NCBI GenBank assembly: GCA_001792535.1
Contig: MGGS01000002.1
Location: 7,155 to 71,154, forward strand
Reading direction: 5' to 3'
From: Candidatus Woesebacteria bacterium RIFCSPHIGHO2_02_FULL_42_20
GTDB taxonomy: Bacteria; Patescibacteriota; Microgenomatia; UBA8517
DNA length: 64,000 bases
Under the pieces are notes generated by a model. It did not search any database. It saw nothing but the letters and a program-made list of their open reading frames with translations, and was not told where the DNA came from. How positions within the stretch are numbered: the stretch's first letter is position 1; each line of letters opens with the position of its first letter. A program made the position numbers and the translations under genes. This document shows, one piece after another, positions 2,107 through 52,642 of this stretch.

Positions 2107-3369
2107 TCACATCCAAATGTCTAATTCATTATGATGGACTTGGGCGTATATTTCAAAACTGTAAACTCCGCTAGGGACTTCGTATATATAATAGAATTCC
2201 TCAGACCCTGGCCTTTTATCGGTCACTTCACCGTCCCAGTCTGTTGAATTAACCCTAAATCTTGCTTTATCCACCAGCCCTTGTGAAGTTGTACCCAAAA
2301 CTGTAAAGTAGATCTTATCCCCGCTTTCAAGGTTTTCCAGGTTGTCGTTGGTCAAGGCTGTCCAATTTGTGGCAACCGTTACACTTCCTGTTACCGAGTA
2401 AGCTTGGACTTGGCTACACCCGACTTCAATACAGGCGTTCGGAGGTGTACTTGTGGGAGTAGGTGTGGGGGTCGGTGTCGGGGTACTTGTTGGGGTACCT
2501 GTCGGCGTGGCGGTCGGTGTGCTGCAGTTTGGCGGGTAGTGTTCACCGGCTATTCTTCCGGTGCCCGTGACGTCGACGTACATCAGGGTAATATCGGGAG
2601 TAAGGTCTCCCTGCCATTCTTGTGTCGTGCTTTCGCCTGGGGTGAGCGAAAATTCTTTTTTAAAGTACGGATCAAACTGTTCGAAAATACCTGAAACGTT
2701 TTGATTGGATGTATTTTTGATGTAGCCCCCGCTACAGTCTACTTTGGTTTCAAGCTCCGGCGGTGCGGGTGTCTCTTTTGGCCCGTAGTTGCCACTGTCA
2801 CTGCAATCTTTTGACCCTATTACCTGCCAACTAAAACCGTCATCGGGGACAGAAACATTGCCCAATGTTGCGGAGTCTCCGGCGTTAAGATTTGGAACGT
2901 CAAGAGTTGCTACCTCTACCGAATTTATATAAATTTTTGCCAGTTGTAGCGGCTCATTGCGGTTTGACTCGTTTTTGACGGTGACTACACCGTCTTGGTT
3001 GACTTCAAAGTTGTATTTATCACAATCCCAGGCGCTTGTGCGAAATTGTGCAGGCTGTCTTACAAGTACCACTCCGGCACCAACCCCAAGCACAAGAAGT
3101 GCTATCCCCAGAATTGTCGCTAAAATTTTTGCTTTTGGCCTACCGTGTTCCGAGGAAGACTGTGTGTTATCAGCGATCACTGTATGGTTGTCATCCGGAG
3201 CAATATTGCCTTCTGCGAGATCAGCTACAGAGAGGGAAGCCGGTCCCGGCTGGTCAGTTGTATCCTGCTGTTGCTGATCGCTCTGTGGCGCGGTCGGCGG
3301 AGGCGTCATGAAACCGGCATTGTCCTGGTTAGTCATTTGATCTGTTGGTGGGGTTGTTTTGGGATCCAT
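2107..3369 (-). CDS. membrane-anchored extracellular protein with Q/T/D-rich N-terminus and Pro/Thr-rich linker; function unknown
   Basis: 420 aa; single TM (ILATILGIALLVLGVGAGVVLV); TATPTGTPTSTPTPTPTPTPTSTPP linker; start ATG overlaps upstream stop (TAATG). Confidence 0.55.
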   Translation of the reverse strand: MDPKTTPPTDQMTNQDNAGFMTPPPTAPQSDQQQQDTTDQPGPASLSVADLAEGNIAPDDNHTVIADNTQSSSEHGRPKAKILATILGIALLVLGVGAGVVLVRQPAQFRTSAWDCDKYNFEVNQDGVVTVKNESNRNEPLQLAKIYINSVEVATLDVPNLNAGDSATLGNVSVPDDGFSWQVIGSKDCSDSGNYGPKETPAPPELETKVDCSGGYIKNTSNQNVSGIFEQFDPYFKKEFSLTPGESTTQEWQGDLTPDITLMYVDVTGTGRIAGEHYPPNCSTPTATPTGTPTSTPTPTPTPTPTSTPPNACIEVGCSQVQAYSVTGSVTVATNWTALTNDNLENLESGDKIYFTVLGTTSQGLVDKARFRVNSTDWDGEVTDKRPGSEEFYYIYEVPSGVYSFEIYAQVHHNELDIWM

Positions 3370-4415
3370 TAATCTTTTATTTTTCTACCTACATAAACGC
3401 CTACCAAAAATAGGCTTACTCCCATGATAGGTGCGATAAAAACTGGTGTCAAGTCGCGAGATGGACCGTTTGCTTGTACTTGTTGCGTCTTTGATGGTGT
3501 AATTACCGAAAAAGAGCCGCTGCTGTCTTTATCGAGTTTCTCGAACATCGGCTCGGGAGTCGGTGTGCCAGTTGGGGTCGGGGCGACGGTTTCCTCTACC
3601 TGCTCACTTTCTTCAGTCGAAAACCCTGAAGGTTGGAACGTGTTTGCTGAAAGGTTGATCTTTGCTCTGGTTATTTCAGGCGGTGCGACAATTGATTTGT
3701 CTCTAAAGTCTTGAGCTTTTCCGATCACAATAGGCGGGATTGGGTTTATATTGTCGGCATCAACGTTAGCGGAAGCAATTCCTTCTAATCCGGCATGGAC
3801 AAAAATAGTAAGCTCGGGCTGCTCGCTGACCGTAAAGTAAGAAAGCAAATTTTCAGTTCTCGATATTGACAGGGGTACAAACCAGTTACCGCTTTCCGAA
3901 GTGGTTGTTGCAAGCGGACTCAGGTGATCCCCGGTTACAAGTACCAGCGCCTTTGCAACAGGCAGGCCGCTTTCGGTGGTAACCAAGCCCGAAATTATTT
4001 GAGAATGTTTGGGTGGTGGTTGCACCGGTGCCGTTTTAGTCAGCCAAAGATTGCCGGCATTGTCAAACTCTATTCCTCCCGAGATTATTTTAAATGAATA
4101 AGCCGTTTCCGGATGAAGGTTGGTGATGGTAATATAGTGGATCATCTCAAAACTTTGAGGGTTGTTACCTGTTACGTTTTCAAGTTGATTTGCTTTACCC
4201 CAGACTAAAAAATCACTTGTTTTTGTATTAGTAAGCCATGAAACAGTAAATGAGTTTTCGGTTATATTTGTAATCCTGACATCTTGTGGTGTAACTCCTT
4301 CCGGGACTTGCACCGAGTAGTCTCGAAAATAATTTATAAAGTAAAGTGCGCCGATGAAAACTACAAAAATGAGCGGTAGTGCCAAGACTGTAGGTATCTT
4401 GAAAGGTTTCCTCAT
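3369..4415 (-). CDS. membrane protein with fibronectin type III-like domain, PT linker and C-terminal TM + basic tail
   Basis: 348 aa; N-terminal TM; Fn3-like segment (TNITENSFTVSWLT...TAYSFKI); APTPTGTPTPEP linker; C-terminal IAPIMGVSLFLVGVYVGRKIKD. Confidence 0.55.
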   Translation of the reverse strand: MRKPFKIPTVLALPLIFVVFIGALYFINYFRDYSVQVPEGVTPQDVRITNITENSFTVSWLTNTKTSDFLVWGKANQLENVTGNNPQSFEMIHYITITNLHPETAYSFKIISGGIEFDNAGNLWLTKTAPVQPPPKHSQIISGLVTTESGLPVAKALVLVTGDHLSPLATTTSESGNWFVPLSISRTENLLSYFTVSEQPELTIFVHAGLEGIASANVDADNINPIPPIVIGKAQDFRDKSIVAPPEITRAKINLSANTFQPSGFSTEESEQVEETVAPTPTGTPTPEPMFEKLDKDSSGSFSVITPSKTQQVQANGPSRDLTPVFIAPIMGVSLFLVGVYVGRKIKD

Positions 4416-8027: not shown

Positions 8028-8074
8028 CACTAAGACTTGACAACTTGTTAGCACTCGTGGTATATAAGTGCTAA
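8024..8074 (+). promoter_or_regulatory. sigma70-type promoter overlapped by a CIRCE operator (HrcA binding site) for hrcA-grpE-dnaK-dnaJ
   Basis: TTGACA (8037-8042), 17-18 nt, TATATA (8061-8066); inverted repeat TTAGCACTC-N9-AAGTGCTAA at 8048-8074 = CIRCE consensus TTAGCACTC-N9-GAGTGCTAA with one mismatch; lies 39 nt upstream of hrcA. Confidence 0.8.
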
Positions 8075-8112: not shown

Positions 8113-8844
8113 ATGAAGGATAATTTGACGGCAAGACAGCTGCAATTACTTAAAGTTATTGTCGACGAGTATATCGAATCGGCCGAGCCCGTCGGGTCCC
8201 AAGTTATTGAAAAGAAATACTCACTTGGAATCTCATCGGCAACTATCAGAAACGAGATGGGCGAGCTGGTCGACAAAGGCTTTTTAAAACAACCTCACAC
8301 GTCAGCCGGTCGGGTTCCCACTCCAAAAGCGATGAAGTTTTATATAAGCCAGCTAATGGAAGAAAAACACCTTAGCTTGACCGACGAAGTTCGTGCAAAA
8401 GAAGAGGTATCTTCTTATAAAGGAAACGTCGACAGGATTATTAATGAGGCTACTCACGGACTGGCACGGAGAACTGGGGCATTGGCCGTTTCGGCACTGG
8501 ATGACGGAAGCACTTGGCACGCTGGCTATGCGAGCCTTTTCGGTAATCCCGGATTTTCGGATATGGCTGTGTGCCGAAGTGTATTCGGGTTAATTGAAGA
8601 AAGTAAAAGAATACACGAACTTTTTTTTGAAAGGCTTGAGTCTGGGTCACCGGTTGAGGTTTTGTTTGGCGAGGAGCTCGGCTGGAGATTTTTTGAACCA
8701 GTCGGGGTGGTCGCGAGGCAATTTACTGCGGGCGGGAAAACCGGTGCGATTGGTGTCATTGGCCCGTTGGGATTTGATTATCCGTATATAATACCTACTG
8801 TCAGATATTTCGGTGATCTTATCGAGGAGCTGTCCCTTCAATGA
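8113..8844 (+). CDS. hrcA: heat-inducible transcription repressor HrcA (short form)
   Basis: 243 aa; N-terminal winged-helix LTARQLQLLKVIVDEYIESAEPVGS; C-terminal IGPLGFDYPYIIP motif; stop overlaps grpE start (ATGA). Confidence 0.85.
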   Translation: MKDNLTARQLQLLKVIVDEYIESAEPVGSQVIEKKYSLGISSATIRNEMGELVDKGFLKQPHTSAGRVPTPKAMKFYISQLMEEKHLSLTDEVRAKEEVSSYKGNVDRIINEATHGLARRTGALAVSALDDGSTWHAGYASLFGNPGFSDMAVCRSVFGLIEESKRIHELFFERLESGSPVEVLFGEELGWRFFEPVGVVARQFTAGGKTGAIGVIGPLGFDYPYIIPTVRYFGDLIEELSLQ

Positions 8845-9317
8845 AGAAAGACAAAAAAAGTAAAGATTCGGTGAGCGAGCTCAAGGGACAGCTGGCAAGG
8901 GCTTTGGCTGATTACGATAATTTAAGGAAAAGGGCCGACGAGGAAAAAGATGCACTTTTCAAGTATTCGAGTCAGCGGATAATAGCCGGGCTTTTGCCGA
9001 TTTTGGATATGCTGGAGGCTGCCCAAAAGCATATTAACGATCAAGGTTTGGCGATAGCGATCAAGGAATTTAAAGATTTACTGAGAGAGGAGGGCGTCGA
9101 AGTCATTCCGGCGGGACAAGGTGAGGCTTTTGACGAAGACACACAAGACGTCATAGAAGTTGTCGAAGGTGGAGAGCACGGAAAGATTAAAGAGGCTGTG
9201 CTGGCTGGTTATCGATTTGCCGACGGCCACGTAATAAGGCATGCTAAAGTGAAAGTATACGGTGGATTGACAGAAAGTAAAAAAGGCGAGAATATGAAAA
9301 AGGAGAATAAGGATTAA
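8841..9317 (+). CDS. grpE: nucleotide exchange factor GrpE
   Basis: 158 aa; [19 protein letters not shown] coiled-coil and [16 protein letters not shown]-terminal beta domain. Confidence 0.9.
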
Positions 9318-11242
9318 TGGGCAAGATAATTGGAATTGACTTGGGTACCACAAATAGTGTCGTTGCCGTTATGGAGGGTGGCCGGCCAAAAGTTATCCCC
9401 GCAGCCGATACTGGGCGGAATATTACACCGTCTGTGGTGGAGCCTGTCAAGAACTTGGTCGGGGACGTTGCCAAAAGGCAAATGATCCTAAACTCCAAAA
9501 ATACGATCTACTCTATTAAAAGGTTGATGGGAAGGCGCAAAACCGACGATGAAGTCAAGCGGACCGAAAAAATGGTTCCCTACTCGATTACTTCGGGTAA
9601 AGACAAGTCTGCGCAGGCAGGCAATATGGCAGCTGTGGAGGTTGAGGGAAAAACGTATACGCCGCAGGAAATCTCGGCGATGATCCTGGGTAAGCTCAAA
9701 AAAGACGCCGAAGCTTATCTTGGTGAAAAAGTGGAGCAGGCTGTGATTACAGTTCCGGCATATTTTGACGACAGCCAGCGTCAGGCGACTAAGCAAGCAG
9801 GAGAAATTGCGGGGCTAAAAGTTGAGCGGATAATAAACGAGCCGACTGCCGCGGCCCTGGCTTACGGCTTGGACAAAGGTAAATCTGAAAAAATTGCGGT
9901 CTATGACCTCGGTGGAGGGACATTTGATATCTCGATTTTGGAGCTTGGTGACGGCGTTTTTGAAGTCAAAGCAACAAATGGTGATACTCACCTGGGCGGT
10001 GACGACTTCGACGCGGTAGTTGTTGACTACATTGTGAGTGAATTTAAGAAAGAAAACTCAATGGACCTAACAGCTGATAAGCAGGCGTTGCAGCGAGTCC
10101 GGGACGCCGCCGAGAAGGCAAAAATAGAGCTTTCTGCGGCTTCGGAAGTCGAAATAAATCAGCCATATATTACCCAAAAAGACGGCAATCCACTTCATTT
10201 GACTATGAAGCTTACCCGGGCAAAACTTGAAAGTCTGGTCGAAGAGCTTGTAGAGAAAACTTTTAAGCCGGTCGAGGCGTGCCTTAAAGACGCCAAGCTC
10301 GACCCGCACGATGTTGACGAAGTGATCATGGTGGGGGGAATGACAAGGATGCCCAAGGTAATAGATAAGGTCAGGGAATATTTTGGCCGTGAAGCAAATA
10401 AGTCCGTCAATCCTGATGAGGTTGTGGCGGTGGGCGCGGCTATTCAAGCCGGGGTTTTGGCCGGTGACGTCAAAGACATTCTTCTGCTTGATGTTACTCC
10501 GTTGACTTTGGGTATAGAAACTCTGGGCGGTGTGGCTACACCGATGATAACAAGAAATACGACAATTCCGGCCTCAAAGACCGAGACCTTCTCAACGGCT
10601 GCAGATAATCAGACCCAAGTCGAGATTCACGTAACCCAGGGCGAGCGGCCGATGAGCGCCGACAATAAATCTTTGGGAAGGTTTATTCTTGATGGTATTC
10701 CGCCTGCTCCTCGTGGCGTGCCTCAAGTAGAAGTTGCTTTCGACATTGATGCTTCAGGGATACTCAAGGTTACAGCCAAAGACAAAGCAACAGGTAAAAG
10801 CCAGAATATAACTATCTCCGGCGCAGTTGGCCTTTCTGACGACGAGGTCAAAAGAATGCAGGAGGAAGCCGAGAAGCACAAAGAAGAGGACACTAAAAAG
10901 TCAGAATTGATAACTGCTCGAAATCAAGCCGATGCGATGGTTGCAACCGCCGAGAAAGCTCTCAAAGATGCCGGTGACAAAGTTGCCAAGGACATTAAAG
11001 AAAAAGTCGAGGAAAAGATAAAGGCAGTTAAGGAAGTAAAAGATTCCGATAAAAAAGACGAAATAGAAGCCAAAACTAAAGAGTTGTCCGAGACTTTGAG
11101 CCAAGTGGGGCAGGCAATGTATCAAAAACAAGATGACAAGAAACAGGAAACCAGTGAACAGTCAGGCGGTGATGAAGGGAAAAAGAAATCTCCAAAAGCC
11201 GGTGACAAAGCCGAAGCGGAAGAAGGCGAGGTTGTAGAATAG
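9317..11242 (+). CDS. dnaK: chaperone DnaK (Hsp70)
   Basis: 641 aa; [22 protein letters not shown], Hsp70 signatures throughout. Confidence 0.97.
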
Positions 11243-11243
11243 T

Positions 11244-12119
11244 GTGGCTGCGGCAAAGGCAGATTACTACAATATTCTGGGAGTTTCAAAAGGCGCGAGC
11301 GCTGACGAACTCAAAAAAGCTTACCGAAAGCAAGCTTTAGAGTGGCACCCTGACCGGCATAAAGACGATAAGGAAGCAGCAGAAAAGCGATTCAAAGAGA
11401 TAAACGAAGCTTACCAAGTGCTGTCTGATCCTAAAAAGAAACAGGCTTATGACCAGTTTGGTCACCAGGCTTTTACTCAGGGTGGGGGTTTTGGCGGAGG
11501 AAGCCCTTTTGGCCAAGCGGGCCAATACGGGCCGTTTACTTATACTTACACGACAAACGGCGGCGGGGGAAATCCGTTTGCCAGTTTTGATTTTGGCGAC
11601 CCTTTTGACATTTTCGAACAGTTTTTTGGGGGCGGCTCACCATTCCGCCGGGCTAGAGCCAAGCCACGTTACAGTATCTCGGTTGATTTTGAGGATGCCG
11701 TGAAGGGAGTCGCCAAAGAGGTTCAGATAGAGGGTAAAAAAAGAAAGATAAAAATTCCAGCCGGAGTCGATGACGGGTCCAGAATAGAATTTGACGACTT
11801 TATTCTGTCGATTAATGTACGGCCAGATCCCAGGTTTGAGCGCGATGGCGCGGATATTTATTTTAGAGAAAGTATTGGGTTTACAACCGCGGCTCTGGGC
11901 GGGGAGATAGAGGTGCCAACTGTTGACGATACCGTGAAGTTGCGAATCCGCCCCGGGACAAATTCGGGGACGATGATTCGGCTTCGCGGCAAAGGCATGC
12001 CACATCTTCGCGGAGGCGGCCGCGGCGACCAATATGTCAGGATTTCGGTTACGGTTCCCGAAAAACTTTCCCGAGAACAAAAAAATCTTTTGGAAGAACT
12101 TCGAGAAGAAGGGTTATAA
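11244..12119 (+). CDS. dnaJ: J-domain co-chaperone, DnaJ/CbpA-like (type II: J domain + G/F region + C-terminal domains, no CxxCxGxG zinc finger)
   Basis: 291 aa; GTG start overlapping dnaK TAG; [32 protein letters not shown] with HPD motif; Gly/Phe-rich region; no cysteine-repeat zinc finger. Confidence 0.85.
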
Positions 12120-37158: not shown

Positions 37159-37425
37159 ATGGCATTATCGAAGGACGAAAAGCTTGATATAATCAAAAAG
37201 TTCGCTATTGAAAAAGGCGACACCGGTTCTCCTGAGGTTCAGGTGGCGCTACTGTCCGCTTCGATAGACAAACTAGCGAAGCATTTGAAAGATCACTCAA
37301 AAGATGTACACTCTAGGAGAGGATTGTTGTCGATGGTTGCCAAAAGAAGGAGGCTTCTAAACTACCTTCTAAAAAAAGACGAAGCTCGCTACAAAGAGCT
37401 TACACGGAAGCTTAGCTTAAAATAA
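37159..37425 (+). CDS. rpsO: 30S ribosomal protein S15
   Basis: 88 aa; [38 protein letters not shown]. Confidence 0.95.
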
Positions 37426-37434
37426 AAGTTAGTA

Positions 37435-39738
37435 ATGAAAGAATTTAAAGAAAGTATTATTGTAGGAGGTAAAACTCTGACCATTTCAAGCGGTAAGTTT
37501 GCGGCCCAAGCAAATGGATCGGTAATGGTAACACTAGGAGACACCGTGGTTTTTGCTGCGGCAACCTCGTCAAGTTTTGACACCGATCGTGATTACTTTC
37601 CCTTAACGGTTGACTATATGGAGCGCCTTTATGCCGGTGGACGGATTAAAGGGAGCCGCTGGGTAAAGCGCGAAGGTAGGCCGACGGACGAGGAGATATT
37701 AACCTGCCGGCTTATCGACCGCTCGATTAGGCCCTTATTTCCCGAATCTTACAAAAAGGAAGTCCAAGTGATTGCGATGGTTTTGTCGGTTGATTTGGTC
37801 AATAGACCGGACATTGTAGGTTGCATCGCAGCCTCAAGCGCTATCTGTATTTCAGACATTCCATTCAAAGAGCCTGTGGTGACGGTCAGCATCGGTAGTA
37901 AAAACGGTAAGTTAATTGTATATCCCTCGGTCGATGAAGTTGCAACCGGGGATCTAGACCTGACGGTCAGTGTAACCAAAGACTCTGTTGTTATGATCGA
38001 GGCCGGGGCAAAGGAAGTCAGCGAAGCCACAATCGTTGAAGCGATTGATCTGGCCCAAAAAGAGGGTAAGAAAGTAATCAAGCTTGTCGCTAAGTTTGCC
38101 CGGAAGGTGGGAATCAAAAAGCAAACCTTTGTAGATGAAAATTTGGACGCCGGGACCAAAAAGAGAATCGAAAAATTGGCGGGTGACAAGCTTGATTCCT
38201 TGATTGTTGCTATGGCCACTACAGAGGGCAGCTACGGAGATTACAACGAACTCAAGTCGGCGGTTGCAGGAGAATTCGAAGACGAAGTAAAAGGTAGAGT
38301 GGCAGCTGGATTTGACTATTTATTTAAAGAAAAGGTGCGTAAAATGATCCTTTCAGGCAAGCGGCCCGATGGTCGAAAACACGAGGCGATTAGGGATTTG
38401 TCCGCTGAAGTTGGGATTTTGCCAAGGACCCACGGGTCAGGGCTTTTTGCCCGCGGCCAGACTCAGGTGCTAAGCGTTACGACTCTTGGCTCGCACACTT
38501 TTGAACAGTTACTCGAAAGCGCCGAAGGAGACGAGTCCAAGCGGTATATGCACCATTATTCTATGCCTCCGTATTCGACAGGTGAAGTCGGGAGAATTGG
38601 GTCGCCGAATAGGCGCGAAATAGGTCACGGGGCGTTGGCCGAGAGAGCTTTGATGCCGGTAATTCCCAGTGAGGAAGTTTTTCCTTACACAATCCGGGTG
38701 GTTTCCGAAGTTATGAGTTCCAACGGCTCGACTTCGATGGCATCTGTCTGCGGCTCGACACTGTCGCTTATGGATGCCGGTGTTCCATTGACTAATCCGG
38801 TAGCAGGGATTGCTATGGGTTTGGTGGTGGACAATGACCCGACTGCGCTTGCAGGCAAAAAGTACGCTGTTTTGACCGACATTGCGGGGTTAGAAGACGG
38901 CAATGGCGATATGGACTTTAAAGTTGCCGGTACCAAAAAAGGAATAACGGCTTTGCAACTTGACGTCAAGACATTGAAACTGACCAGGTCGATACTTGAA
39001 GCGGCGTTAAAGCAAGCCAAAGAGGCTCGTGAAGAAATCATGTCCGTAATTGTCAAAACACTAAGTACCCCTCGTGAGCGAGTCTCGCAGTATGCCCCGA
39101 AGATTAGAACTACAAAAATCGATCCGTTCAAAATTGGTGAGTTGATTGGCCCGGGAGGAAAGACGATTAAAGGAATAATAGCTAAAACAGGTGCCGATGT
39201 TGATGTTGAAGACGACGGGACGGTTTACGTAAGTGCGATTGACGAGGCAGCAGTAAGTGCCGCGATTGATGAAATTACTAAACTTACAAAGGAAATTTTA
39301 CCGAACGAGATCTACGAAGGCGAAGTGAAAAGGGTGGAAAACTACGGTGCCTTTGTCGAAATTCTACCTAAAAAGGAGGGATTGGTACATGTTTCCGATA
39401 TGTCTCAGGAGTTTGTCAAGGATGTTTCAAGCCTGGTCAAATTAGGAGACAAAGTGAAAGTTCGGGTAAAAGAAATAGACAGCCTTGGAAGGTTAAACCT
39501 TTCAATGGTAATGGACCCGGCTTTTGACAAGCAGAAGGAGGAAAGAGACAGGGAGCGTAACCGTGGCGGTAGAGATTTCGGCCGTGACAGGCGGGATCAA
39601 GGCCGTGGCCGCGGCAGCATCAGCAGATTTGGCGGTAGAAGAAGAGACAGTAATTTCAGGGACCGAGGTGGCTTTGGCGGTCCTCATTTTCCTGCGAGCA
39701 GTTTGATGGACCAGTCATCAAAGGATTTCCGCGAATAA
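37435..39738 (+). CDS. pnp: polynucleotide phosphorylase with Arg/Gly-rich C-terminal tail
   Basis: 767 aa; two RNase PH domains, KH, S1; C-terminal ~70 aa RGG/RD-repeat low-complexity extension. Confidence 0.95.
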   Translation: MKEFKESIIVGGKTLTISSGKFAAQANGSVMVTLGDTVVFAAATSSSFDTDRDYFPLTVDYMERLYAGGRIKGSRWVKREGRPTDEEILTCRLIDRSIRPLFPESYKKEVQVIAMVLSVDLVNRPDIVGCIAASSAICISDIPFKEPVVTVSIGSKNGKLIVYPSVDEVATGDLDLTVSVTKDSVVMIEAGAKEVSEATIVEAIDLAQKEGKKVIKLVAKFARKVGIKKQTFVDENLDAGTKKRIEKLAGDKLDSLIVAMATTEGSYGDYNELKSAVAGEFEDEVKGRVAAGFDYLFKEKVRKMILSGKRPDGRKHEAIRDLSAEVGILPRTHGSGLFARGQTQVLSVTTLGSHTFEQLLESAEGDESKRYMHHYSMPPYSTGEVGRIGSPNRREIGHGALAERALMPVIPSEEVFPYTIRVVSEVMSSNGSTSMASVCGSTLSLMDAGVPLTNPVAGIAMGLVVDNDPTALAGKKYAVLTDIAGLEDGNGDMDFKVAGTKKGITALQLDVKTLKLTRSILEAALKQAKEAREEIMSVIVKTLSTPRERVSQYAPKIRTTKIDPFKIGELIGPGGKTIKGIIAKTGADVDVEDDGTVYVSAIDEAAVSAAIDEITKLTKEILPNEIYEGEVKRVENYGAFVEILPKKEGLVHVSDMSQEFVKDVSSLVKLGDKVKVRVKEIDSLGRLNLSMVMDPAFDKQKEERDRERNRGGRDFGRDRRDQGRGRGSISRFGGRRRDSNFRDRGGFGGPHFPASSLMDQSSKDFRE

Positions 39739-39773
39739 GCATAATGCTTCTTTTTCTGTTAATATAATTTAAA

Positions 39774-40820
39774 GTGACGGCAAACGTATTAGATCAGCTA
39801 ACCAAAATCGGGGAGCGTGTGAAGTCAGCGGATATTCCTCAAGGACTTCGCGAAGATATTTTAAACAGGGTAAGTCAACTTGGAAATTTGGTTGAGTCTT
39901 CTACCTTTTTACCTGAATTTGACCGTATGAATAGTTATGTTGACTGGGTGGTTGGCCTCCCGTGGGATAAAAAGAGCCAGGACACACTTGATCTTGTCAA
40001 GTCAAAAGAAATATTAGACCGGAATCATTACGGTTTAGACGAGATCAAAGAGCGGATTTTGGAATATATGTCGGTTGTGAAACTTAATGAGGAAGACAAA
40101 GAGAATATTGCTCATGCACCGATACTTTGCTTTGTTGGATTGGTTGGTACCGGGAAGACAACTATTGCAAAGTCGATTGCCCAGGCTATGGGAAAGCAAT
40201 TTGTGCGTATTCCTTTTGGTGGTATGGGGGATCCATTGGATTTAAGAGGGCTGTCTAGGATGCATCCGGAGGCCGAGCCGGGCAAAGTAATTAAAGCAGT
40301 CAAATTGGCGGGGACAAGAAACCCTGTGATACTTTTGGATGAGATCGATAGGGTTACAGACGAAGGCCGATCGTCTATTATGGGAGTACTGGTGGAGTTG
40401 CTTGATCCCCAACAGAACAACGCTTTTGTGGATCACTACATTGACTATCCGTTTGATCTTTCGGAAGCGCTCTTTATTGCCACAGCCAATAATACGATAA
40501 AGATTTCTACCGCAGTTCTCGACAGATTGGAACCACTTATGATGCCGTCATATACCGACAATGAAAAAATAGTAATCGGTCAAAAATATATTTTCCCCAG
40601 AGTAATGCAAGAGTCCGGACTACCCGAAAACAGTCTTACTATTCAAGAAGACGTTTGGCCGAATATTGTGCGACCGTTAGGATTTGACGCCGGAATCAGG
40701 ACGCTGCAGAGGACAATTGAAGGTGTTGTTAGAAAATCCGTCCGGGAAATAGTCGAAGGTAAGGTTGACCGGGTTGAGGTGAACAAGGATAATGTCAAAA
40801 AGTACTTGCCGCAGCTCTAG
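39774..40820 (+). CDS. Lon-type AAA+ ATPase module lacking the N-terminal substrate domain and the serine-peptidase domain
   Basis: 348 aa; aligns to Lon residues ~270-590: HYGLDEIKERILEYMSV, Walker A GLVGTGKTT, Walker B VILLDEIDRV, sensor regions; ORF ends where the Lon P domain would begin and the next gene starts 6 nt later. Confidence 0.75.
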   Translation: MTANVLDQLTKIGERVKSADIPQGLREDILNRVSQLGNLVESSTFLPEFDRMNSYVDWVVGLPWDKKSQDTLDLVKSKEILDRNHYGLDEIKERILEYMSVVKLNEEDKENIAHAPILCFVGLVGTGKTTIAKSIAQAMGKQFVRIPFGGMGDPLDLRGLSRMHPEAEPGKVIKAVKLAGTRNPVILLDEIDRVTDEGRSSIMGVLVELLDPQQNNAFVDHYIDYPFDLSEALFIATANNTIKISTAVLDRLEPLMMPSYTDNEKIVIGQKYIFPRVMQESGLPENSLTIQEDVWPNIVRPLGFDAGIRTLQRTIEGVVRKSVREIVEGKVDRVEVNKDNVKKYLPQL

Positions 40821-40825
40821 CTAAT

Positions 40826-41335
40826 ATGTTAATTGCAATTTTGTCAGACATTCACGACCATATTTGGAACCTTGAAAAGGCAAAAAAGGTTATTAAGAAA
40901 GAAAAATGTGAAGCTGTTGTATTTTGTGGTGATATGTGTGCTCCTTTTACTACCCAGATACTTACCGCGACAGGCCTTCCCACTTATGCAGTTTGGGGAA
41001 ATGTGGATGAAGACCACTGGGCGATGGTTAAAAAGGGCGGGGATAACTTTTTTGCAGCAACTTTGTCTCAGGAGTTTAATGAGGTGGTGCTTGGAGGTAA
41101 AAAAATCGCCTTTTGTCACTATCCCAAACTTGGTTCCCTCTTGGCCGAAACCGGTTATTACGATGCGGTTTTCCATGGCCATACACACGTTACCTATTCC
41201 AAAAAAACGGGTAAGACGCTTTTGGCTAACCCCGGCGCTGTTTGCGGCATTGTGAAGGGCCGCGCCGGCCTAGCCAGTTTTATGGTTTTCGATACCGATA
41301 AAAACAGTCTTAGACTCGTGAAAATTAGCAAATGA
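40826..41335 (+). CDS. metallophosphoesterase (YfcE/MJ0936 family)
   Basis: 169 aa; LSDIHDH, GDMCAPF, GNVD, GHTH motifs. Confidence 0.8.
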   Translation: MLIAILSDIHDHIWNLEKAKKVIKKEKCEAVVFCGDMCAPFTTQILTATGLPTYAVWGNVDEDHWAMVKKGGDNFFAATLSQEFNEVVLGGKKIAFCHYPKLGSLLAETGYYDAVFHGHTHVTYSKKTGKTLLANPGAVCGIVKGRAGLASFMVFDTDKNSLRLVKISK

Positions 41336-41955
41336 CCAAAAAAGAAAAATTGGCCGAGATCAAAAAAAGGATGGAAGCGGACAAAAGTCTTCCCCTGGCA
41401 AGCGGTGCTTCGCGGCTTGTGTTTGGCGATGGCAACCCGGACGCGCAAATATTAATGATCGGTGAAGGCCCGGGGTACTGGGAAGATCAGCAAGGTTTGC
41501 CTTTTGTCGGTAATGCCGGAAAACTATTGGACCAGCTTTTGGCAACAGCTCACCTTTCCAGGAATGATACTGTGTATATTACAAACGTGGTTCATCACAG
41601 ACCGCCCGGGAATCGCGACCCCGAGCCTAGCGAAATTGCCGCATATGGCAGATATTTGGACGAGATGATTGAGGTAATTGCGCCAGCAGCGATTGTAACT
41701 CTGGGCAGATTTTCAATGGCCAAGTTTCTGCCCGGTGCCAAAATTAGTCGTGATCACGGCAGACCCGTGACAATGCCTTGGAGGGGGCGAGAAATTGTGG
41801 TTGTTCCCATGTATCACCCAGCAGCTGCGCTTCGTAGTGGAGAAGTGATGCTTGCGGAAAGAGAAGATTTTGCTAGTCTTGAAAGTGGCCTTAAATCATT
41901 AGTGGACAAAAGAAGTGAAACTACAAAGGAAAGTGAGCAAATGCACTTAGTATGA
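41332..41955 (+). CDS. uracil-DNA glycosylase, family 4
   Basis: 207 aa; GEGPGYWEDQQGLPFVGNAGKLL signature. Confidence 0.88.
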   Translation: MTKKEKLAEIKKRMEADKSLPLASGASRLVFGDGNPDAQILMIGEGPGYWEDQQGLPFVGNAGKLLDQLLATAHLSRNDTVYITNVVHHRPPGNRDPEPSEIAAYGRYLDEMIEVIAPAAIVTLGRFSMAKFLPGAKISRDHGRPVTMPWRGREIVVVPMYHPAAALRSGEVMLAEREDFASLESGLKSLVDKRSETTKESEQMHLV

Positions 41956-43607
41956 GTGAGCTTAAATTTATCGTAATTTCGGGAACAACCGGAGTTACCG
42001 AAAATTGCTATATATATCAGTGGCAAGAGGAAATGATGGTTGTTGATTGCGGTGTGGGCTTCCCCGACCCGGAGATGTTGGGTGTCGACCTTGTGATTCC
42101 CGACTTTACCTATATTAAGAAAAACAAAGACAAGCTTAGAGGAATACTTATTTCTCATGGCCACGAAGACCACCTTGGTGCTCTGCCCTTTCTTTTTCGC
42201 GATGTTGACGTGCCCATATATGCAACAAAGCTTGTGGCAGGATTTATCGAAGACAAGTTTGCAGACTACGGACTCAAGCCGCCAAGAATTACTGTTTTTA
42301 ATCCGGAGCGTGATGCTTTTGCAGTCGGGGTCTTTAAAATAAATCCTTTTCGGGTTTCCCACTCGGTTCCGGACGGGGTCGGCTACGCGATTGACACCCC
42401 GGCAGGCCGTGTTTTCCATGTGCCCGATTACAAATTTGATTGGACGCCGGTTGATGGCAGGCCGTTTGATATTGCCCGTGCGGCAATGCTTGCAAGTGGT
42501 GGAGTTTTGGCGCTGGCTTCGGATTCACTTGGCTCGACAACTGAAGGTTACACAAAGTCCGAAAAAGAGATTGAAACGAAGGTGGAGACTATAGCCCGTG
42601 ACGCGAAGAAAAAAATTCTTTTTACGACAATTTCGTCCAACATATCGAGAATTAAGCAAGCTTTAAATGTTGCAGCTAAACTTAGGCGCAAGGTTGTTAT
42701 TGTCGGCCGGTCTATTGAAAAGAAGGTGGAAATTGCACAAAGACTGGGCTACCTTGATTTTGACAAGCATCTGTTGATTTTACCCAAAGAAGCAAAACGG
42801 TTTAGGGACAGTCAGTTATTCTTTATAATATCCGGAAGTTACGGCCAAATAGGAAGTGCTTTGTACCGGGTCGCCATTTCCGACCACCAATTTATTCGCG
42901 TCAGCGAAGACGATGTGGTGATTTTTTCGGGCGATCCCGCGCCTCCGGGGTCTAAAGACAATGTGGATTTTGTGGTAGACAGATTGATTGAGCTTGGCGT
43001 AGACGTGCATTACTACGACACCCAAGAAGATTTGCATGTATCGGGTCACGGCTCCCGAGAGGACATAAACACTCTTTTTGGACTGGTGCGGCCAAAGTAT
43101 TTTATCCCGATTGGCGGCACAATTAGACACAACAAAGCTTATAAAAGAATGGCAATGGATTTTGGGGCGAATGAGCATAGTGTCTTTGAACTAAAAGGTG
43201 GCAACATATTAGAACTTGGCGAAAACGGGGCCTTCGTGCTGCCGGAGAAGATTCCTTCAAGAAGCGTCATGGTCGATGGCCTTGGTGTTGGCGACGTTGG
43301 CAATATAGTATTAAGGGATAGAAGCGTTTTGGCGACAGACGGAGTAGCGATTGCTGTCATTGAACTCAATAAAGACACTAAAAAGCTTAGTAATACTCCG
43401 GACATTATAAGCCGCGGATTTGTCTATAAAGGAGCTAAAGAGTCTTTATTAAAAGACGCCGGGTTTGCCCTGAAGGCAGAACTTGAAAGGATGAAGGAAT
43501 TAGACCAGAAACTGGCAAGAAACGTGGCGGCTGATTTTTTGGAAAGGTACTTCAATAAAAAAATTGCCCGCCGCCCCATGATTTTACCCGTGATTGTAGA
43601 AGTTTAA
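41952..43607 (+). CDS. rnj: ribonuclease J (beta-CASP metallo-beta-lactamase)
   Basis: 551 aa; HGHEDHLGALP motif, beta-CASP region, C-terminal domain. Confidence 0.9.
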   Translation: MSELKFIVISGTTGVTENCYIYQWQEEMMVVDCGVGFPDPEMLGVDLVIPDFTYIKKNKDKLRGILISHGHEDHLGALPFLFRDVDVPIYATKLVAGFIEDKFADYGLKPPRITVFNPERDAFAVGVFKINPFRVSHSVPDGVGYAIDTPAGRVFHVPDYKFDWTPVDGRPFDIARAAMLASGGVLALASDSLGSTTEGYTKSEKEIETKVETIARDAKKKILFTTISSNISRIKQALNVAAKLRRKVVIVGRSIEKKVEIAQRLGYLDFDKHLLILPKEAKRFRDSQLFFIISGSYGQIGSALYRVAISDHQFIRVSEDDVVIFSGDPAPPGSKDNVDFVVDRLIELGVDVHYYDTQEDLHVSGHGSREDINTLFGLVRPKYFIPIGGTIRHNKAYKRMAMDFGANEHSVFELKGGNILELGENGAFVLPEKIPSRSVMVDGLGVGDVGNIVLRDRSVLATDGVAIAVIELNKDTKKLSNTPDIISRGFVYKGAKESLLKDAGFALKAELERMKELDQKLARNVAADFLERYFNKKIARRPMILPVIVEV

Positions 43608-43661: not shown

Positions 43662-43940
43662 ATGAAAATAGTAACGATATCTTCAAAAAGACAAATGACT
43701 ATTCCAAGGAGCTATTTGGAAGTGCTGGGTCTGGAGTCTTATGGAAAGGCAATTTTGGAAAAAGAAAAGGACAAAGTGGTAATTAGGCCCATGAAAGGGT
43801 CGGTAGTAGATCAGGTTGCCGGGAGCCTTCGAGGATACGTTAGACCATCTTTACTGGGTAAAAGCGTAGAAGAAATAAACAAGGAGGCTGGGGAGGCTTA
43901 TACAAAATACCTGGCGAAAAAATTTAAGCTTATCAAATGA
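43662..43940 (+). CDS. AbrB/MazE (SpoVT-AbrB) family antitoxin
   Basis: 92 aa; MKIVTISSKRQMTIPRSYLEVLGLE swapped-hairpin signature. Confidence 0.75.
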   Translation: MKIVTISSKRQMTIPRSYLEVLGLESYGKAILEKEKDKVVIRPMKGSVVDQVAGSLRGYVRPSLLGKSVEEINKEAGEAYTKYLAKKFKLIK

Positions 43941-44323
43941 TAACTTGCGTATTTGATACAAATGTACTGCTTCGTCTTTTTCTGAGAGACATTGAAAGTC
44001 AGTTTTTAGAAACGACTAGAGTATTAAAAGAGATTGAAGATGAAAAATCTACAGGAAAACTTTCAGCATTGGTTGTTGCAGAAACAATTTGGACATTTGA
44101 AAGTGTTTATAAATTAAACAGAAAGATAGTTATTGAGAAACTCCTTAGTTTAGTTGCATTAAAAAATATTAAGATCATTGAAGTAAAAAAAGACGTTCTT
44201 GTGGAAATCCTAAAAAGAATGATTGGAAACAAATTAGATTTTGTGGATGTTTATCTTTCCAAGATTGCCACCAAAAAAGAGATTTTTTCTTTTGACCGTG
44301 ACTTCAAAAAACTGTACAGATAA
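43937..44323 (+). CDS. vapC: PIN-domain toxin VapC
   Basis: 128 aa; N-terminal CVFDTNVLL; ATGA overlap with antitoxin gene. Confidence 0.8.
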   Translation: MITCVFDTNVLLRLFLRDIESQFLETTRVLKEIEDEKSTGKLSALVVAETIWTFESVYKLNRKIVIEKLLSLVALKNIKIIEVKKDVLVEILKRMIGNKLDFVDVYLSKIATKKEIFSFDRDFKKLYR

Positions 44324-47935: not shown

Positions 47936-48307
47936 TTATTTGTACTTGGAATGAGTTTTTAGAAGCTTCTTGTCAAAGCTTTTAAGCTGAGATTTTGAGT
48001 TAAGGACCTCGGCTAGTAATAACGAGTCGTAAAAACTTACCCTTTCATTTTTATAAATATTGAGAGACAAAGGCACGAAAGATGAAGTTGAAACGTTGGG
48101 CTGCTTTATCAAGGAAATTAAAACATTACACAACTCTTTTTTGTTTGCCTTGTAGTGTGTCTCAAGAATATAAACTACTTCAGCCAGTACAATATTGGCA
48201 ATATAAATTTTGTCATTTTCAATAATTTTCTTTGCGGTTTCTGCTTGGACTTTTATATCTTTGGTTAGAAAGCGGACGAGGTAGTTTGTGTCCAGGTATG
48301 TAGCCAT
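47936..48307 (-). CDS. PIN-domain toxin (VapC-like)
   Basis: 123 aa; MATYLDTNYLVRFL N-terminal acidic-residue strand; C-terminal SFYDSLLLAEV. Confidence 0.75.
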   Translation of the reverse strand: MATYLDTNYLVRFLTKDIKVQAETAKKIIENDKIYIANIVLAEVVYILETHYKANKKELCNVLISLIKQPNVSTSSFVPLSLNIYKNERVSFYDSLLLAEVLNSKSQLKSFDKKLLKTHSKYK

Positions 48308-50506: not shown

Positions 50507-52642
50507 ATGAGTTTGATTAAATTTGGCTTAAAAGAAGCCGACAAAGAGCATTACTGGACCTTAATAATTGAAGAAGGCTGGGTCCAGAGTGCCATTTGGA
50601 AAATTGACGAAAAAGACGAGGAGGCACAGGTTGTTTCATTTAGCTCTCCTGTTCGCTTCGAAAGCGATGATGACTTGGTTGAAACCGTTGATACTTCTCT
50701 TTCGGCTACAATTCAAAGCTTACCCAAGGAATTCCCTGAGCCGTCAAAAACTGTTTTTGGGGTACCTTCCTCATGGGTGAACAATGGTCAAATAGTGCCG
50801 GAGCACTTGGAGAAAATAAGGCACATCTGCTCAAAGCTTTCCTTAGCACCTACCGGATTCGTCGTACTGTCTGAAGCTATTGCGTTTTTAACTAAGACAC
50901 AAGAAGGTTCTCCGCTAAGTGCCGTGGTAATTGGCCTGACAGCTACAAGCCTTGAACTAAGCATTTTTAAGCTTGGCAAGTTGATTGGCAATACCAAGGT
51001 GGCTCGAAGTGTATCTTTATTTGACGACGCGGTTGAAGGTGTTTCGCGCTTTACTGACGGGATGCCTTTGCCTTCGCGGTTTTTAGTTTATGACGGTAAA
51101 GAGGGCGAAATGGATGAGGCCAAAGAAGCGCTTATTTCTGCTGACTGGTCAGCTAATACTTCTGATAAGGTTAAATTTATTCACTCTCCCAAAGTTGAAA
51201 CAGTGAGTGTTAATGATAAGATTCTGGCAGTTTCGTTGGCTGGTTCTTCTGAGATCGGAAAAGTGAAAAGTGTCATAATGACGGGCATAAAAAGCGAAGA
51301 TGCGGAGGAAAAGGTTGAAGTAACCGATGTGGTAAGTAATATCCGTGAAAACGAAATTACAGCAGGCGACTTGGGATTTGTAAATGATGAAGATGTTGTT
51401 ATCGAGGAAAAAATTCCCGTCTCTGAAACCAAAGTCCATAAAGTAACACCGAAATTTAAAAATCCGTTCGCTTTTCCGAAGTTTAAGGTGAGCTCGGGCG
51501 GATCGTCCGGTAAAAAAATGCTAATCGTCGGGTTTTTACTGTTTTCTGTGATTATTATAGGTCTTACTTTGGCTTGGTGGTTTTTACCTAAGGCAACAGT
51601 CACCATTTTTGTCTCCCCCAAAACCTTGCAGGAAAAAGACACCATCTCAATAGATATAAATGCAACGGGGGCCAATCTGGAGGCGAAAGTTATTCCCGGC
51701 AGAATAGAAAAAGTCAAGGTAGATGGTAGTAAAACAAAGTCGGTAACAGGTACCAAAGTTGTTGGTGATAAAGCTAAAGGAACCGTCAAAGTCAGAAACG
51801 GCACGCCGACCGACGTCAGTTTTGCCGCCGGTACCGTTATGGAAGGGCCGAATGGGTTAAAGTTCGGCCTAGATGAGTCGGTGTCGGTTTCAAGCGCAAT
51901 TTCGCCGACTTTACCGGGGACAGAAAATGTTTCGGTTACTGCCGAAGCCATTGGTTCGGAATATAACTTGGCTAAGGACGAAACGTTTAAAATGAGTAAT
52001 TATCCGAAAAGTGAGATTGACGCGGTTGGTGAGGCCGATTTTTCTGGAGGTAGTAGCCGTGAAATTTCGGCTGTTTCGCAAGATGATGTTGAGCAGCTTG
52101 AGAAGAGTTTAACGGATGAACTTGAAGATCAGGCCGAAGAAAAAATGATGGCTACGCTTGCTGCGGACGAAAGTTTTATCGAAGGCACTGTGACTTCGAG
52201 TGTTGCCGAGAGGGAGTTTGATCATAAAGTCGGGGACGAGGCTGCAAGTGTCGAACTGTCTTTGTCATTGGAAGTAAGCGCTTTAGTCGTGGACAGCATC
52301 GACTTAGATGGCCTTGCATCAAAGCTTTTGGAAGACCAGACCCCTCAAGGATTTTTGTTCAGAAATGAACAAGTGGATAAGACTTTTAAATTAGAAGGTC
52401 AGAGCAATGGTGTTTATAAGGTTACGATTAGCTTTGTGGCCAATCTTTTGCCCAATCTTAAAGTAGACGAAATTGCGAGTAAAATTTCGGGTAAGTATAC
52501 GGACGTGGCAAGCAATTATTTGCAAACGATACCAGGATTTAAAAAAGCCCAAATCAGTATTAACCCGAGGTTCCCTGGTAAGCTTGGTACTTTACCAAAT
52601 GTAAAAAATAATATATCAATAGAGATCTCTGCGAGTAAGTAA
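50507..52642 (+). CDS. membrane protein: N-terminal actin-like (PilM/FtsA-like) cytoplasmic domain, one TM, ~370-aa extracellular domain
   Basis: 711 aa; TVFGVPSSWVNNGQIVPEHLEKIRHICSKLSLAPTGFVVLSEAIAFL resembles actin/Hsp70-fold connect motif; TM MLIVGFLLFSVIIIGLTLAWWF at ~aa 335. Confidence 0.45.
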   Translation: MSLIKFGLKEADKEHYWTLIIEEGWVQSAIWKIDEKDEEAQVVSFSSPVRFESDDDLVETVDTSLSATIQSLPKEFPEPSKTVFGVPSSWVNNGQIVPEHLEKIRHICSKLSLAPTGFVVLSEAIAFLTKTQEGSPLSAVVIGLTATSLELSIFKLGKLIGNTKVARSVSLFDDAVEGVSRFTDGMPLPSRFLVYDGKEGEMDEAKEALISADWSANTSDKVKFIHSPKVETVSVNDKILAVSLAGSSEIGKVKSVIMTGIKSEDAEEKVEVTDVVSNIRENEITAGDLGFVNDEDVVIEEKIPVSETKVHKVTPKFKNPFAFPKFKVSSGGSSGKKMLIVGFLLFSVIIIGLTLAWWFLPKATVTIFVSPKTLQEKDTISIDINATGANLEAKVIPGRIEKVKVDGSKTKSVTGTKVVGDKAKGTVKVRNGTPTDVSFAAGTVMEGPNGLKFGLDESVSVSSAISPTLPGTENVSVTAEAIGSEYNLAKDETFKMSNYPKSEIDAVGEADFSGGSSREISAVSQDDVEQLEKSLTDELEDQAEEKMMATLAADESFIEGTVTSSVAEREFDHKVGDEAASVELSLSLEVSALVVDSIDLDGLASKLLEDQTPQGFLFRNEQVDKTFKLEGQSNGVYKVTISFVANLLPNLKVDEIASKISGKYTDVASNYLQTIPGFKKAQISINPRFPGKLGTLPNVKNNISIEISASK

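Follow-up and report, generated by a model that had tools for sequence, protein, structure and literature searches.

The DNA analyzed here is a 64,000-nucleotide (nt) stretch, referred to as the window, of contig MGGS01000002.1 from Candidatus Woesebacteria bacterium RIFCSPHIGHO2_02_FULL_42_20. At positions 39774 to 40820, the window carries a gene that almost certainly encodes a functional ATPase derived from the Lon protease but lacking its peptidase (P) domain, termed P-less below. The open reading frame (ORF) starts with GTG and ends with TAG at 40818-40820, and an N-terminal extension is impossible because of the in-frame stop codon found shortly before the start. After a 5-nt spacer, the next ATG, at 40826, opens an intact gene for a YfcE-type metallophosphoesterase that spans its profile end to end, in line with a previous interpretation made from the letters alone (the sequence-only reading), which had placed a metallophosphoesterase at this position. 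The whole block of rpsO, pnp, the Lon-like gene and the genes for the metallophosphoesterase, a UDG-family protein and RNase J lies on one strand; the spacers measure 35 nt and 5 nt, and two 4-nt overlaps follow, one at the metallophosphoesterase/UDG junction and one at the UDG/RNase J junction. The coordinates of all features are collected in the table.

Table. Features of the Lon-like gene, its product and its flanks (window positions; residue numbers refer to the Lon-like protein; AF2, AlphaFold2)
Feature	Positions	Strand	Remarks
Complete gene, peptidase-less and N-domain-less Lon-derived AAA+ ATPase	39774-40820	+	348 aa plus TAG stop
Spacer between the pnp stop and the GTG start	39739-39773	none	35 nt; in-frame TAA at 39765-39767, 6 nt before the start
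Upstream syntenic genes	37159-39738	+	rpsO 37159-37425; pnp 37435-39738
Downstream codirectional genes	40826-43607	+	YfcE-type metallophosphoesterase 40826-41335; UDG-family protein 41332-41955; RNase J 41952-43607
N-terminal three-helix bundle, residues 1-62	39774-39959	+	AF2 helices 2-18, 23-37 and 45-61
AAA+ large alpha/beta subdomain, residues 74-257	39993-40544	+	Pfam AAA 118-253; AF2 model; Foldseek
Alpha-helical lid (small subdomain), residues 258-348	40545-40817	+	Pfam Lon_lid; includes sensor-2 Arg309 (40698-40700)
Walker A, GLVGTGKT (K128, T129)	40137-40160	+	K and T invariant in 78/78 loci
Walker B, ILLDEIDR (D189, E190)	40329-40352	+	D and E invariant in 78/78 loci
Sensor-1 Asn239	40488-40490	+	invariant in 78/78 loci
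Trans-acting arginine finger Arg251	40524-40526	+	invariant in 78/78 loci
Pore loop 1, remodeled, SRMHPEAEPG	40254-40283	+	His164 for LonA Tyr, Pro165 for Val/Ile, E166-A-E168 for G-A-M/L
Pore loop 2, remodeled, TDEGRSSIMG	40356-40385	+	Gly198 at the aromatic position; canonical RGDP gone

The domain content of the protein was examined with profiles and structures. Pfam recognized AAA (PF00004, residues 118 to 253) and Lon_lid (PF22667, residues 280 to 330) and returned no match to LON_substr_bdg (PF02190), to Lon_C or to any other part of LonA. The NCBIfam equivalog for endopeptidase La (TIGR00763, "lon") aligned with an E value of 8e-97, only over profile positions 253 to 576 of 795, and the scores were below the curated cutoffs of both TIGR00763 (325.5 versus 608 bits) and PRK10787 (249.6 versus 891). 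NCBIfam has no dedicated model for the P-less family. The closest solved structure by sequence was Lon of Bacillus subtilis (3m6a; E value of 8e-76, query residues 11 to 345), and further matches were to the LonA proteins of Thermus thermophilus, Yersinia pestis and Escherichia coli and to human LONP1. These alignments ran from query residues 6 to 15 up to residues 333 to 345, ending at the start of the target's peptidase domain. An AlphaFold2 model built with 37 family sequences (pLDDT of 90.3, pTM of 0.84) consisted of a three-helix bundle, an alpha/beta AAA+ core and a helical lid, and the best Foldseek matches in the PDB were the AAA+ modules of LonA and LONP1, with a query TM score of up to 0.86. 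The three-helix bundle is the counterpart of the helices in front of the AAA+ core of LonA, which TIGR00763 covers from position 253. The protein ends with YLPQL, at the position of the linker between the AAA and P domains of LonA, and this C terminus, (F/Y)(L/I)PQ, is well conserved. The Pfam, TIGR00763 and 3m6a alignments thus agree with the sequence-only reading, according to which the ORF corresponds to the helical linker and AAA+ core of Lon, has no N domain and stops where the peptidase domain should start.

The residues required for ATP hydrolysis were all in place. The protein has the motif set of the AAA+ superfamily, namely a Walker A motif (GxxGxGK[ST]), a Walker B motif (hhhhDE), a polar sensor-1 residue, an arginine finger and a sensor-2 Arg, so that the Walker motifs and sensors pointed out before could be assigned to K128, D189/E190, N239 and R309. 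The sensor-2 Arg (R309 here) was present in 77 of 78 loci, and the other residues were invariant (see the table). Because the arginine finger acts in trans and is invariant, the active sites would be formed between subunits; the protein is thus predicted to assemble into a Lon-like ring, a hexamer, and to hydrolyze ATP.

Next, the distribution of the gene was examined. Several groundwater samples yielded 12 contigs that encode the identical protein with the same flanks. When 1.84 billion representatives were searched exhaustively, 3,194 proteins matched at an E value of ≤1e-30. Among the 120 best protein clusters, 87 were exactly 348 aa long and nearly all were 344 to 353 aa long, at 64 to 85% identity, and more than 100 protein clusters had the same 344- to 353-aa architecture. 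The database names of these proteins are "AAA family ATPase," "hypothetical protein" (Woesebacteria, Microgenomates, Patescibacteria) and, at JGI, "ATP-dependent Lon protease." When each GTDB species was represented by one genome, the scan gave 74 loci with the gene plus six canonical Lon loci; the carriers belong to Woese-, Shapiro-, Ames-, Levy-, Davies-, Roizman- and Pacebacteria, WWE3, Dojkabacteria, Nomurabacteria and unnamed Patescibacteria. In every locus from the Patescibacteria (candidate phyla radiation [CPR]), the reading frame ended 0 to 8 residues after the family model, versus 194 to 220 residues in the six canonical Lons. When seven orthologues were compared, the differences at codon positions 1, 2 and 3 were 0.24 to 0.38, 0.16 to 0.24 and 0.59 to 0.66, respectively. 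The nonsynonymous proportion (pN) was 0.21 to 0.30 versus a synonymous proportion (pS) of 0.77 to 0.88, the latter being saturated, so that no numeric dN/dS ratio is given. The low pN next to a saturated pS and the codon-position pattern show that the Lon-like gene is under strong purifying selection.

These results bear on the possibility of a truncated lon pseudogene, which the sequence-only reading had left as one of two options, or of an assembly or frameshift artifact. Such an origin would fit the fact that only the middle third of a LonA is covered. However, the identical protein recurs on 12 contigs from several samples, the architecture is kept in 74 species and more than 100 clusters, purifying selection acts on the gene, its catalytic residues do not vary, intact genes flank it at spacers of 35 nt and 5 nt, and no domain remnants were found (see below). 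We therefore consider this explanation refuted, with next to no probability left to it.

Two observations on the records themselves were made during the scan. Two loci assigned to the same metagenome-assembled genome, CAZBWW01 (L049 and L064), carry P-less copies with 41% identity, one in a groESL context and the other in a pnp-rnj context; they represent either two paralogues per genome or a chimeric bin. Also, many records, those of L008, L010, L011, L013 to L015, L025, L027 and L032 to L055, bear titles such as "uncultured Gammaproteobacteria," "Pseudomonadales" or even "Candidatus Methanoperedens" (L027). With a CPR-type gene block under such titles, it looks as if the record taxonomy is wrong or the bins are contaminated.

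To look for the missing domains, hidden Markov models (HMMs) of the P domain and the N domain were built from 58 canonical LonA representatives and used in six-frame searches. Neither domain was detected in the search, which covered the 64-kb window and 81 CPR loci totaling about 1.3 Mb; for 74 species, the negative result extends to 10 kb from the gene. As positive controls, all six of the canonical Lon loci were recovered, with scores of 246 to 311 bits overall and 270 to 310 bits with the P-domain model. When 3 kb to either side of the gene was searched in six frames with the HMM filters off (E value of ≤100), all matches were noise with negative scores, and no remnant of a P or N domain was seen; the check for frameshift remnants proposed by the sequence-only reading thus came out negative for the P domain in these flanks. 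The GPSAG motif was absent from all six frames of the window, which speaks against the frameshifted full-length lon, with its PKDGPSAG/Ser-Lys region in another frame, that had been named as the alternative. A tblastn match at 4325-4194 on the reverse strand (E value of 0.003), obtained with an E. coli Lon P-domain query, was rejected as spurious. The corresponding ORF (3369-4415, reverse strand) encodes a 348-aa predicted surface protein with fn3 and CarboxypepD_reg-like domains, beside PilN/PilO-like genes.

A separately encoded partner could in principle make up for the missing domain. Two-component AAA+ proteases, such as ClpXP and HslUV, are common, and the Lon-like ATPase may dock on a separately encoded S16 peptidase or another self-compartmentalized peptidase to form an ATP-dependent protease. 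The truncation exactly at the interdomain linker and the well-conserved C terminus are consistent with such a docking. However, besides the lack of Lon_C and Lon N domains in the regions searched, no peptidase gene recurs among the neighbors of the family loci; M23 and M10 peptidases adjoin two deep-branching members, once each. Moreover, the pore aromatics that would feed a degradation chamber are lost in most members, as described next. To judge from the window and the family loci, a split Lon is therefore improbable in our view.

The pore loops of the protein differ from those of LonA at the positions that grip the substrate. Pore loop 1 of canonical LonA reads G-H-R-R-T-Y-[VI]-G-A-[ML]-P-G, with the Tyr found in 57 of 58 representatives, and the same segment is G-L-S-R-M-H-P-E-A-E-P-G here. 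Across 119 Woesebacteria-type clusters, the Tyr position was occupied by His in 115, the next residue was Pro or Ala, and E166 and E168 were invariant. The Tyr position was not conserved over the family as a whole (F in 16, S in 14, H in 12, Y in 10 and L in 5 of the 78 loci, with others in the rest), and a new acidic motif, [DE]-[AS]-E-P-G, was nearly fixed, with E168 present in 75 of the 78 loci. In pore loop 2, the canonical [FY]-R-G-D-P is replaced by G-R-[AS]-S-I-M; the aromatic position, F or Y in most canonical LonA representatives, was Gly in 118 of the 119 clusters. In LonA of Meiothermus taiwanensis (MtaLonA), Tyr397 of pore loop 1 and Trp431 of pore loop 2 touch the translocating substrate, and both are needed for degradation (PMC8503904). 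These two residues are 34 positions apart, the same spacing as that between H164 and G198. All P-less proteins examined showed the pore-loop change and all proteins with a P domain kept the canonical loops; therefore, the loss of the peptidase and the remodeling of the threading apparatus go together. As to the second option of the sequence-only reading, a stand-alone Lon-like unfoldase, its first part holds, and the term unfoldase is doubtful because both substrate-contacting aromatics are replaced.

The relationship of the family to LonA was analyzed by rescoring and by phylogeny. According to the family HMM, every representative that scored above the best canonical LonA (332 bits) was without a peptidase domain (P0130, P0132, P0136, P0139/P0271, P0141, P0145, P0146, P0147, P0151, P0157, P0158 and P0162, as well as three short fragments, P0152, P0154 and P0176). 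P0175, P0219 and several further fragments scored below 332 bits, yet they were peptidase-less as well. In a neighbor-joining tree of 348 shared columns comprising 33 P-less and 75 other sequences, the P-less proteins were split from LonA in 100 of 100 bootstraps. Only one fragment departed from this split; its pore loops are canonical, and it is evidently an ordinary Lon that has been cut short. The most parsimonious account is that both flanking domains were lost once, long ago, and that the gene was inherited vertically from then on. The protein studied here has the traits of this CPR family: it consists only of the bundle, the AAA+ core and the lid, it stops at most 8 residues past the lid, it carries the [DE]-[AS]-E-P-G motif, and it belongs to a monophyletic group apart from LonA. 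In place of the Lon N domain, several members have an N-terminal extension of 40 to 350 residues that is rich in Q, P and T and apparently disordered, and two have disordered C-terminal tails, with S/N-rich tails in some. No other Pfam domain was found in any extended member. The extended or tailed members are P0132, P0136, P0139/P0271 (L089, 2471-4582), P0141, P0151 (L007, 10001-11524), P0157 and P0158. A different and unusual architecture was seen in multi-AAA Lon proteins of 900 to 3,865 aa (P0121 to P0129, P0131, P0133 to P0135, P0137, P0140, P0142, P0143 and others), which contain two to four tandem Lon-type AAA+ modules, many of them ending in one peptidase-sized C-terminal region.

The deep monophyly of the family, together with its identity of about 40% to LonA, also bears on whether the protein may be a regulatory or structural paralogue that joins a full-length Lon, or another AAA+ protease whose gene lies elsewhere, in mixed rings. 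There are precedents for AAA+ protease rings with proteolytically inactive subunits, for instance, chloroplast FtsHi, and the arginine finger and the interface-forming AAA+ elements are conserved in the P-less proteins. However, such a separate lineage argues against this role, and no full-length Lon was found in any CPR locus fetched. We consider it very unlikely.

The genomic context was then compared across relatives. The most frequent arrangement, found in the window and in about 50 loci, is rpsO-pnp-X-(udg)-rnj-...-ftsK-HTH_25, where X is the Lon-like gene. In 33 of 66 evaluable loci, pnp was directly upstream (≤400 nt); of 58 loci, 40 had rnj at most 4.5 kb downstream, 18 had it as the immediate neighbor, and 38 had ftsK within 9 kb. 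The region between rpsO-pnp and ftsK also houses a member with only 39% identity, and the pnp-X-rnj-ftsK slot houses the 703-aa member P0271, whose disordered N-terminal extension is 350 aa long. The metallophosphoesterase was rejected as a conserved partner, being downstream in only 2 of 58 loci. Thus, of the operon proposed by the sequence-only reading, the tight codirectional arrangement of pnp, phosphoesterase, UDG and rnj is present in the window, but only the pnp and rnj neighbors recur in relatives. Predicted terminators and promoters within the pnp-to-rnj block did not exceed the numbers expected from shuffled sequence. In 10 other loci, forming a sub-clade of 65% mean identity that includes Roizmanbacteria, the Lon-like gene is divergently adjacent to groES-groEL, with an intergenic region of about 90 to 210 nt. 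A conserved promoter-like element, TTGTCAAG(T/G)G...(16-18 nt)...TCTGCTAA, is present in the last ~45 nt before the gene in these loci (L026, L032, L037, L040, L041, L049, L051, L054, L057 and L068) and ends 5 to 25 nt before its start codon, which suggests leaderless or short-leader transcripts and possibly regulation shared with groESL. No CIRCE/HrcA heat-shock operator was found near the Lon-like gene or in the groES-X intergenic regions of the relatives. In a third context, seen in 7 loci, the downstream gene is convergent and encodes a VirB4-like type IV secretion ATPase; this neighbor is probably not meaningful. A role in antiphage defense was rejected: the PADLOC defense models gave only weak generic P-loop (AAA) matches, the best being DolB with 31.6 bits, and the context is a housekeeping one.

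The frequent position between pnp and rnj raised the possibility that the ATPase is an accessory factor of RNA decay that remodels or recycles PNPase, RNase J or ribonucleoprotein substrates. Both the recurrence of the two neighbors and the occupation of the same slot by the 39%-identical member and by the member with the 350-aa extension are in agreement with this. PNPase of the window has an Arg/Gly-rich C-terminal tail, and most CPR PNPases at family loci carry such basic tails, some with a shared short motif; the acidic pore loop 1 could engage them. However, 27 loci, among them those of the groESL-linked sub-clade, show no pnp/rnj association, and Arg/Gly-rich tails also occur where pnp is not adjacent. 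The order rpsO-pnp...rnj...ftsK looks like an ancestral housekeeping gene order; B. subtilis has pnpA...rnjB-tepA-spoIIIE in the same order. To our knowledge, no AAA+ component of an RNA degradosome has been described. An RNA-decay function therefore appears unlikely.

In the PNPase of the window, the tail comprises the C-terminal ~70 residues (39526-39735); elsewhere in CPR, Arg/Gly-rich tails of 20 to 100 residues follow the S1 domain (L004, L008 to L011, L014 to L048 and others). Two motifs recur in them, GPHFP(T/A)S in the window, L004 and L008 to L011 and HPL(A/S)xQFRRE in L014, L017, L019, L021, L024, L029, L034 and L043. Such a tail might act as an RGG box that binds RNA and contains a docking motif.

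The remaining window is an ordinary CPR chromosome, with murJ, hrcA-grpE-dnaK-dnaJ, secA, a class I lysS, alaS, rpoB and rpoC. The only good CIRCE of the window, near-perfect with one mismatch (TTAGCACTC-N9-AAGTGCTAA, 8048-8074), precedes hrcA-grpE-dnaK-dnaJ (8113-12119), and the HrcA protein of this operon is short (243 aa). Two small pairs resembling PIN-domain toxin-antitoxin systems (43662-44323 and 47936-48307) are inserted between rnj, ftsK and alaS; in L001, a 79-aa antitoxin-like gene follows the second one. Downstream of alaS, a 711-aa ORF (50507-52642) had no Pfam match at an E value of ≤1e-5.

We then compared the protein with known systems. With LonA (MEROPS S16; 3M6A of B. subtilis, 7FD4 of M. 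taiwanensis and human LONP1), it shares the three-helix bundle, the AAA+ alpha/beta subdomain and the Lon-type lid, with 35 to 44% identity and identical Walker A, Walker B, sensor-1, arginine finger and sensor-2 residues. Lost are the N-terminal substrate-binding domain and coiled coil and the S16 Ser-Lys peptidase domain. Pore loop 1 is RRTY[VI]GA[ML]PG in LonA versus S[RK]xxx[DE][AS]EPG in the P-less proteins, and pore loop 2 is [FYW]RGDP versus GR[AS]SIM. Of five tests for a LonA, only the AAA+ module with its lid was passed, and four failed (N domain, peptidase domain, curated score and pore-loop aromatics); the protein should therefore not be named a Lon protease. Its boundaries are nearly identical to those of an engineered AAA+ fragment of E. 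coli Lon (6N2I, 344 residues; query residues 15 to 345 against chain residues 17 to 339, E value of 4e-71), so that the natural protein is equivalent to the laboratory A-domain construct. However, 6N2I was made by truncating a protease and has canonical pore loops, whereas the CPR protein is a natural, selected and free-standing gene product.

Proteolytically inactive derivatives of AAA+ proteases can serve as motors or chaperones, as exemplified by chloroplast FtsHi/Ycf2 and protease-dead Pim1 of yeast. The parallel is that an AAA+ protease lineage retains its ATPase for a nondegradative task; the difference is that these proteins keep a degenerate or mutated protease domain, whereas in the CPR protein the domain is deleted and the pore loops are rebuilt. 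Protease-dead Pim1 can support complex assembly, and a Lon ATPase ring can therefore work usefully without proteolysis. Assignment to LonB, LonC or LonBA, for which the peptidase domain was looked for together with a membrane insertion in the AAA+ region (LonB) or degenerate Walker motifs (LonC), is not supported, since Lon_C is missing, the Walker motifs are intact and the AlphaFold2 model is a continuous soluble AAA+ fold. LonC (e.g., of M. taiwanensis), which is without ATP-powered unfolding, is a related case of ATPase and protease functions uncoupled in evolution (PMC3391209, PMC13069640). It is the mirror image of the present protein: LonC keeps the peptidase with an inactive ATPase module, whereas the CPR protein has intact ATPase residues and no peptidase. 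According to a recent review of the Lon family, all Lons are single-chain proteins with both ATPase and protease domains (PMC9569914). A search of the full-text literature on Lon and Patescibacteria/CPR found no account of a stand-alone protease-less Lon ATPase. As far as could be found, the family, whose sequences are already in databases unnamed or misnamed, and its rebuilt pore are apparently undescribed.

Taken together, these data lead to the following model. A LonA protease very probably underwent a clean loss of its N-terminal substrate-recognition domain and its C-terminal S16 peptidase domain, and the resulting gene, inherited vertically, is now a core gene of many lineages of Patescibacteria. 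To judge from its conserved residues, the protein may assemble into Lon-like rings and turn over ATP, and such rings, having no peptidase domain, would degrade nothing. General, processive unfolding into a degradation chamber would have been abandoned, with no aromatic paddle left for arbitrary unfolded polypeptides. Instead, the ATPase would remodel its clients, or act on them in the manner of a chaperone, without proteolysis and over a narrowed range of clients; the glutamate-lined pore would favor basic segments, and the protein may serve proteostasis or the assembly and disassembly of housekeeping complexes. The groESL linkage of one sub-clade fits a role in proteostasis. While the existence of a functional ATPase is hardly in question, the remodeler or chaperone-type mechanism is put forward as a tentative proposal; for the two in combination, we consider the model reasonably likely.

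Several points weigh against this model. LonA hexamers are stabilized by the ring of P domains, which the Lon-like protein does not have. In about one-third of the species, an aromatic side chain (F or Y) is still found at the Tyr position or beside it, so that threading may survive in some lineages, and His may partly stand in for Tyr. The commonest context, between pnp and rnj, points equally to RNA metabolism, and the adjacency to groESL, limited to one sub-clade, may be inherited synteny. Also, the search for a peptidase or a full-length Lon was confined to the window and the CPR loci described above.

A broader version of the model would be a conversion of Lon, in much of the CPR, into a new functional class of nonproteolytic AAA+ machine, with a glutamate-lined nonaromatic pore and often with long disordered Q/P-rich arms where Lon has its N domain, acting as a core housekeeping factor, so that the CPR "Lon" entries would not be proteases. 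Such a machine might, for example, recognize basic Arg/Gly-rich tails like that of the adjacent PNPase or act alongside GroESL. We regard this version as less likely than not.

What stands out is that an ancient and large bacterial radiation retains the AAA+ module of Lon under strong selection with the protease absent and the pore loops rebuilt. The family is a natural separation-of-function experiment on what a Lon ATPase ring does alone, on whether its assembly needs the ring of P domains, and on how far the chemistry of the pore loops can drift while the motor is kept. Inventories of the proteolytic capacity of CPR bacteria are probably inflated because these proteins are labeled "ATP-dependent Lon protease" at JGI. 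Unless they have another Lon, these very small cells would be without any Lon-type quality-control proteolysis.

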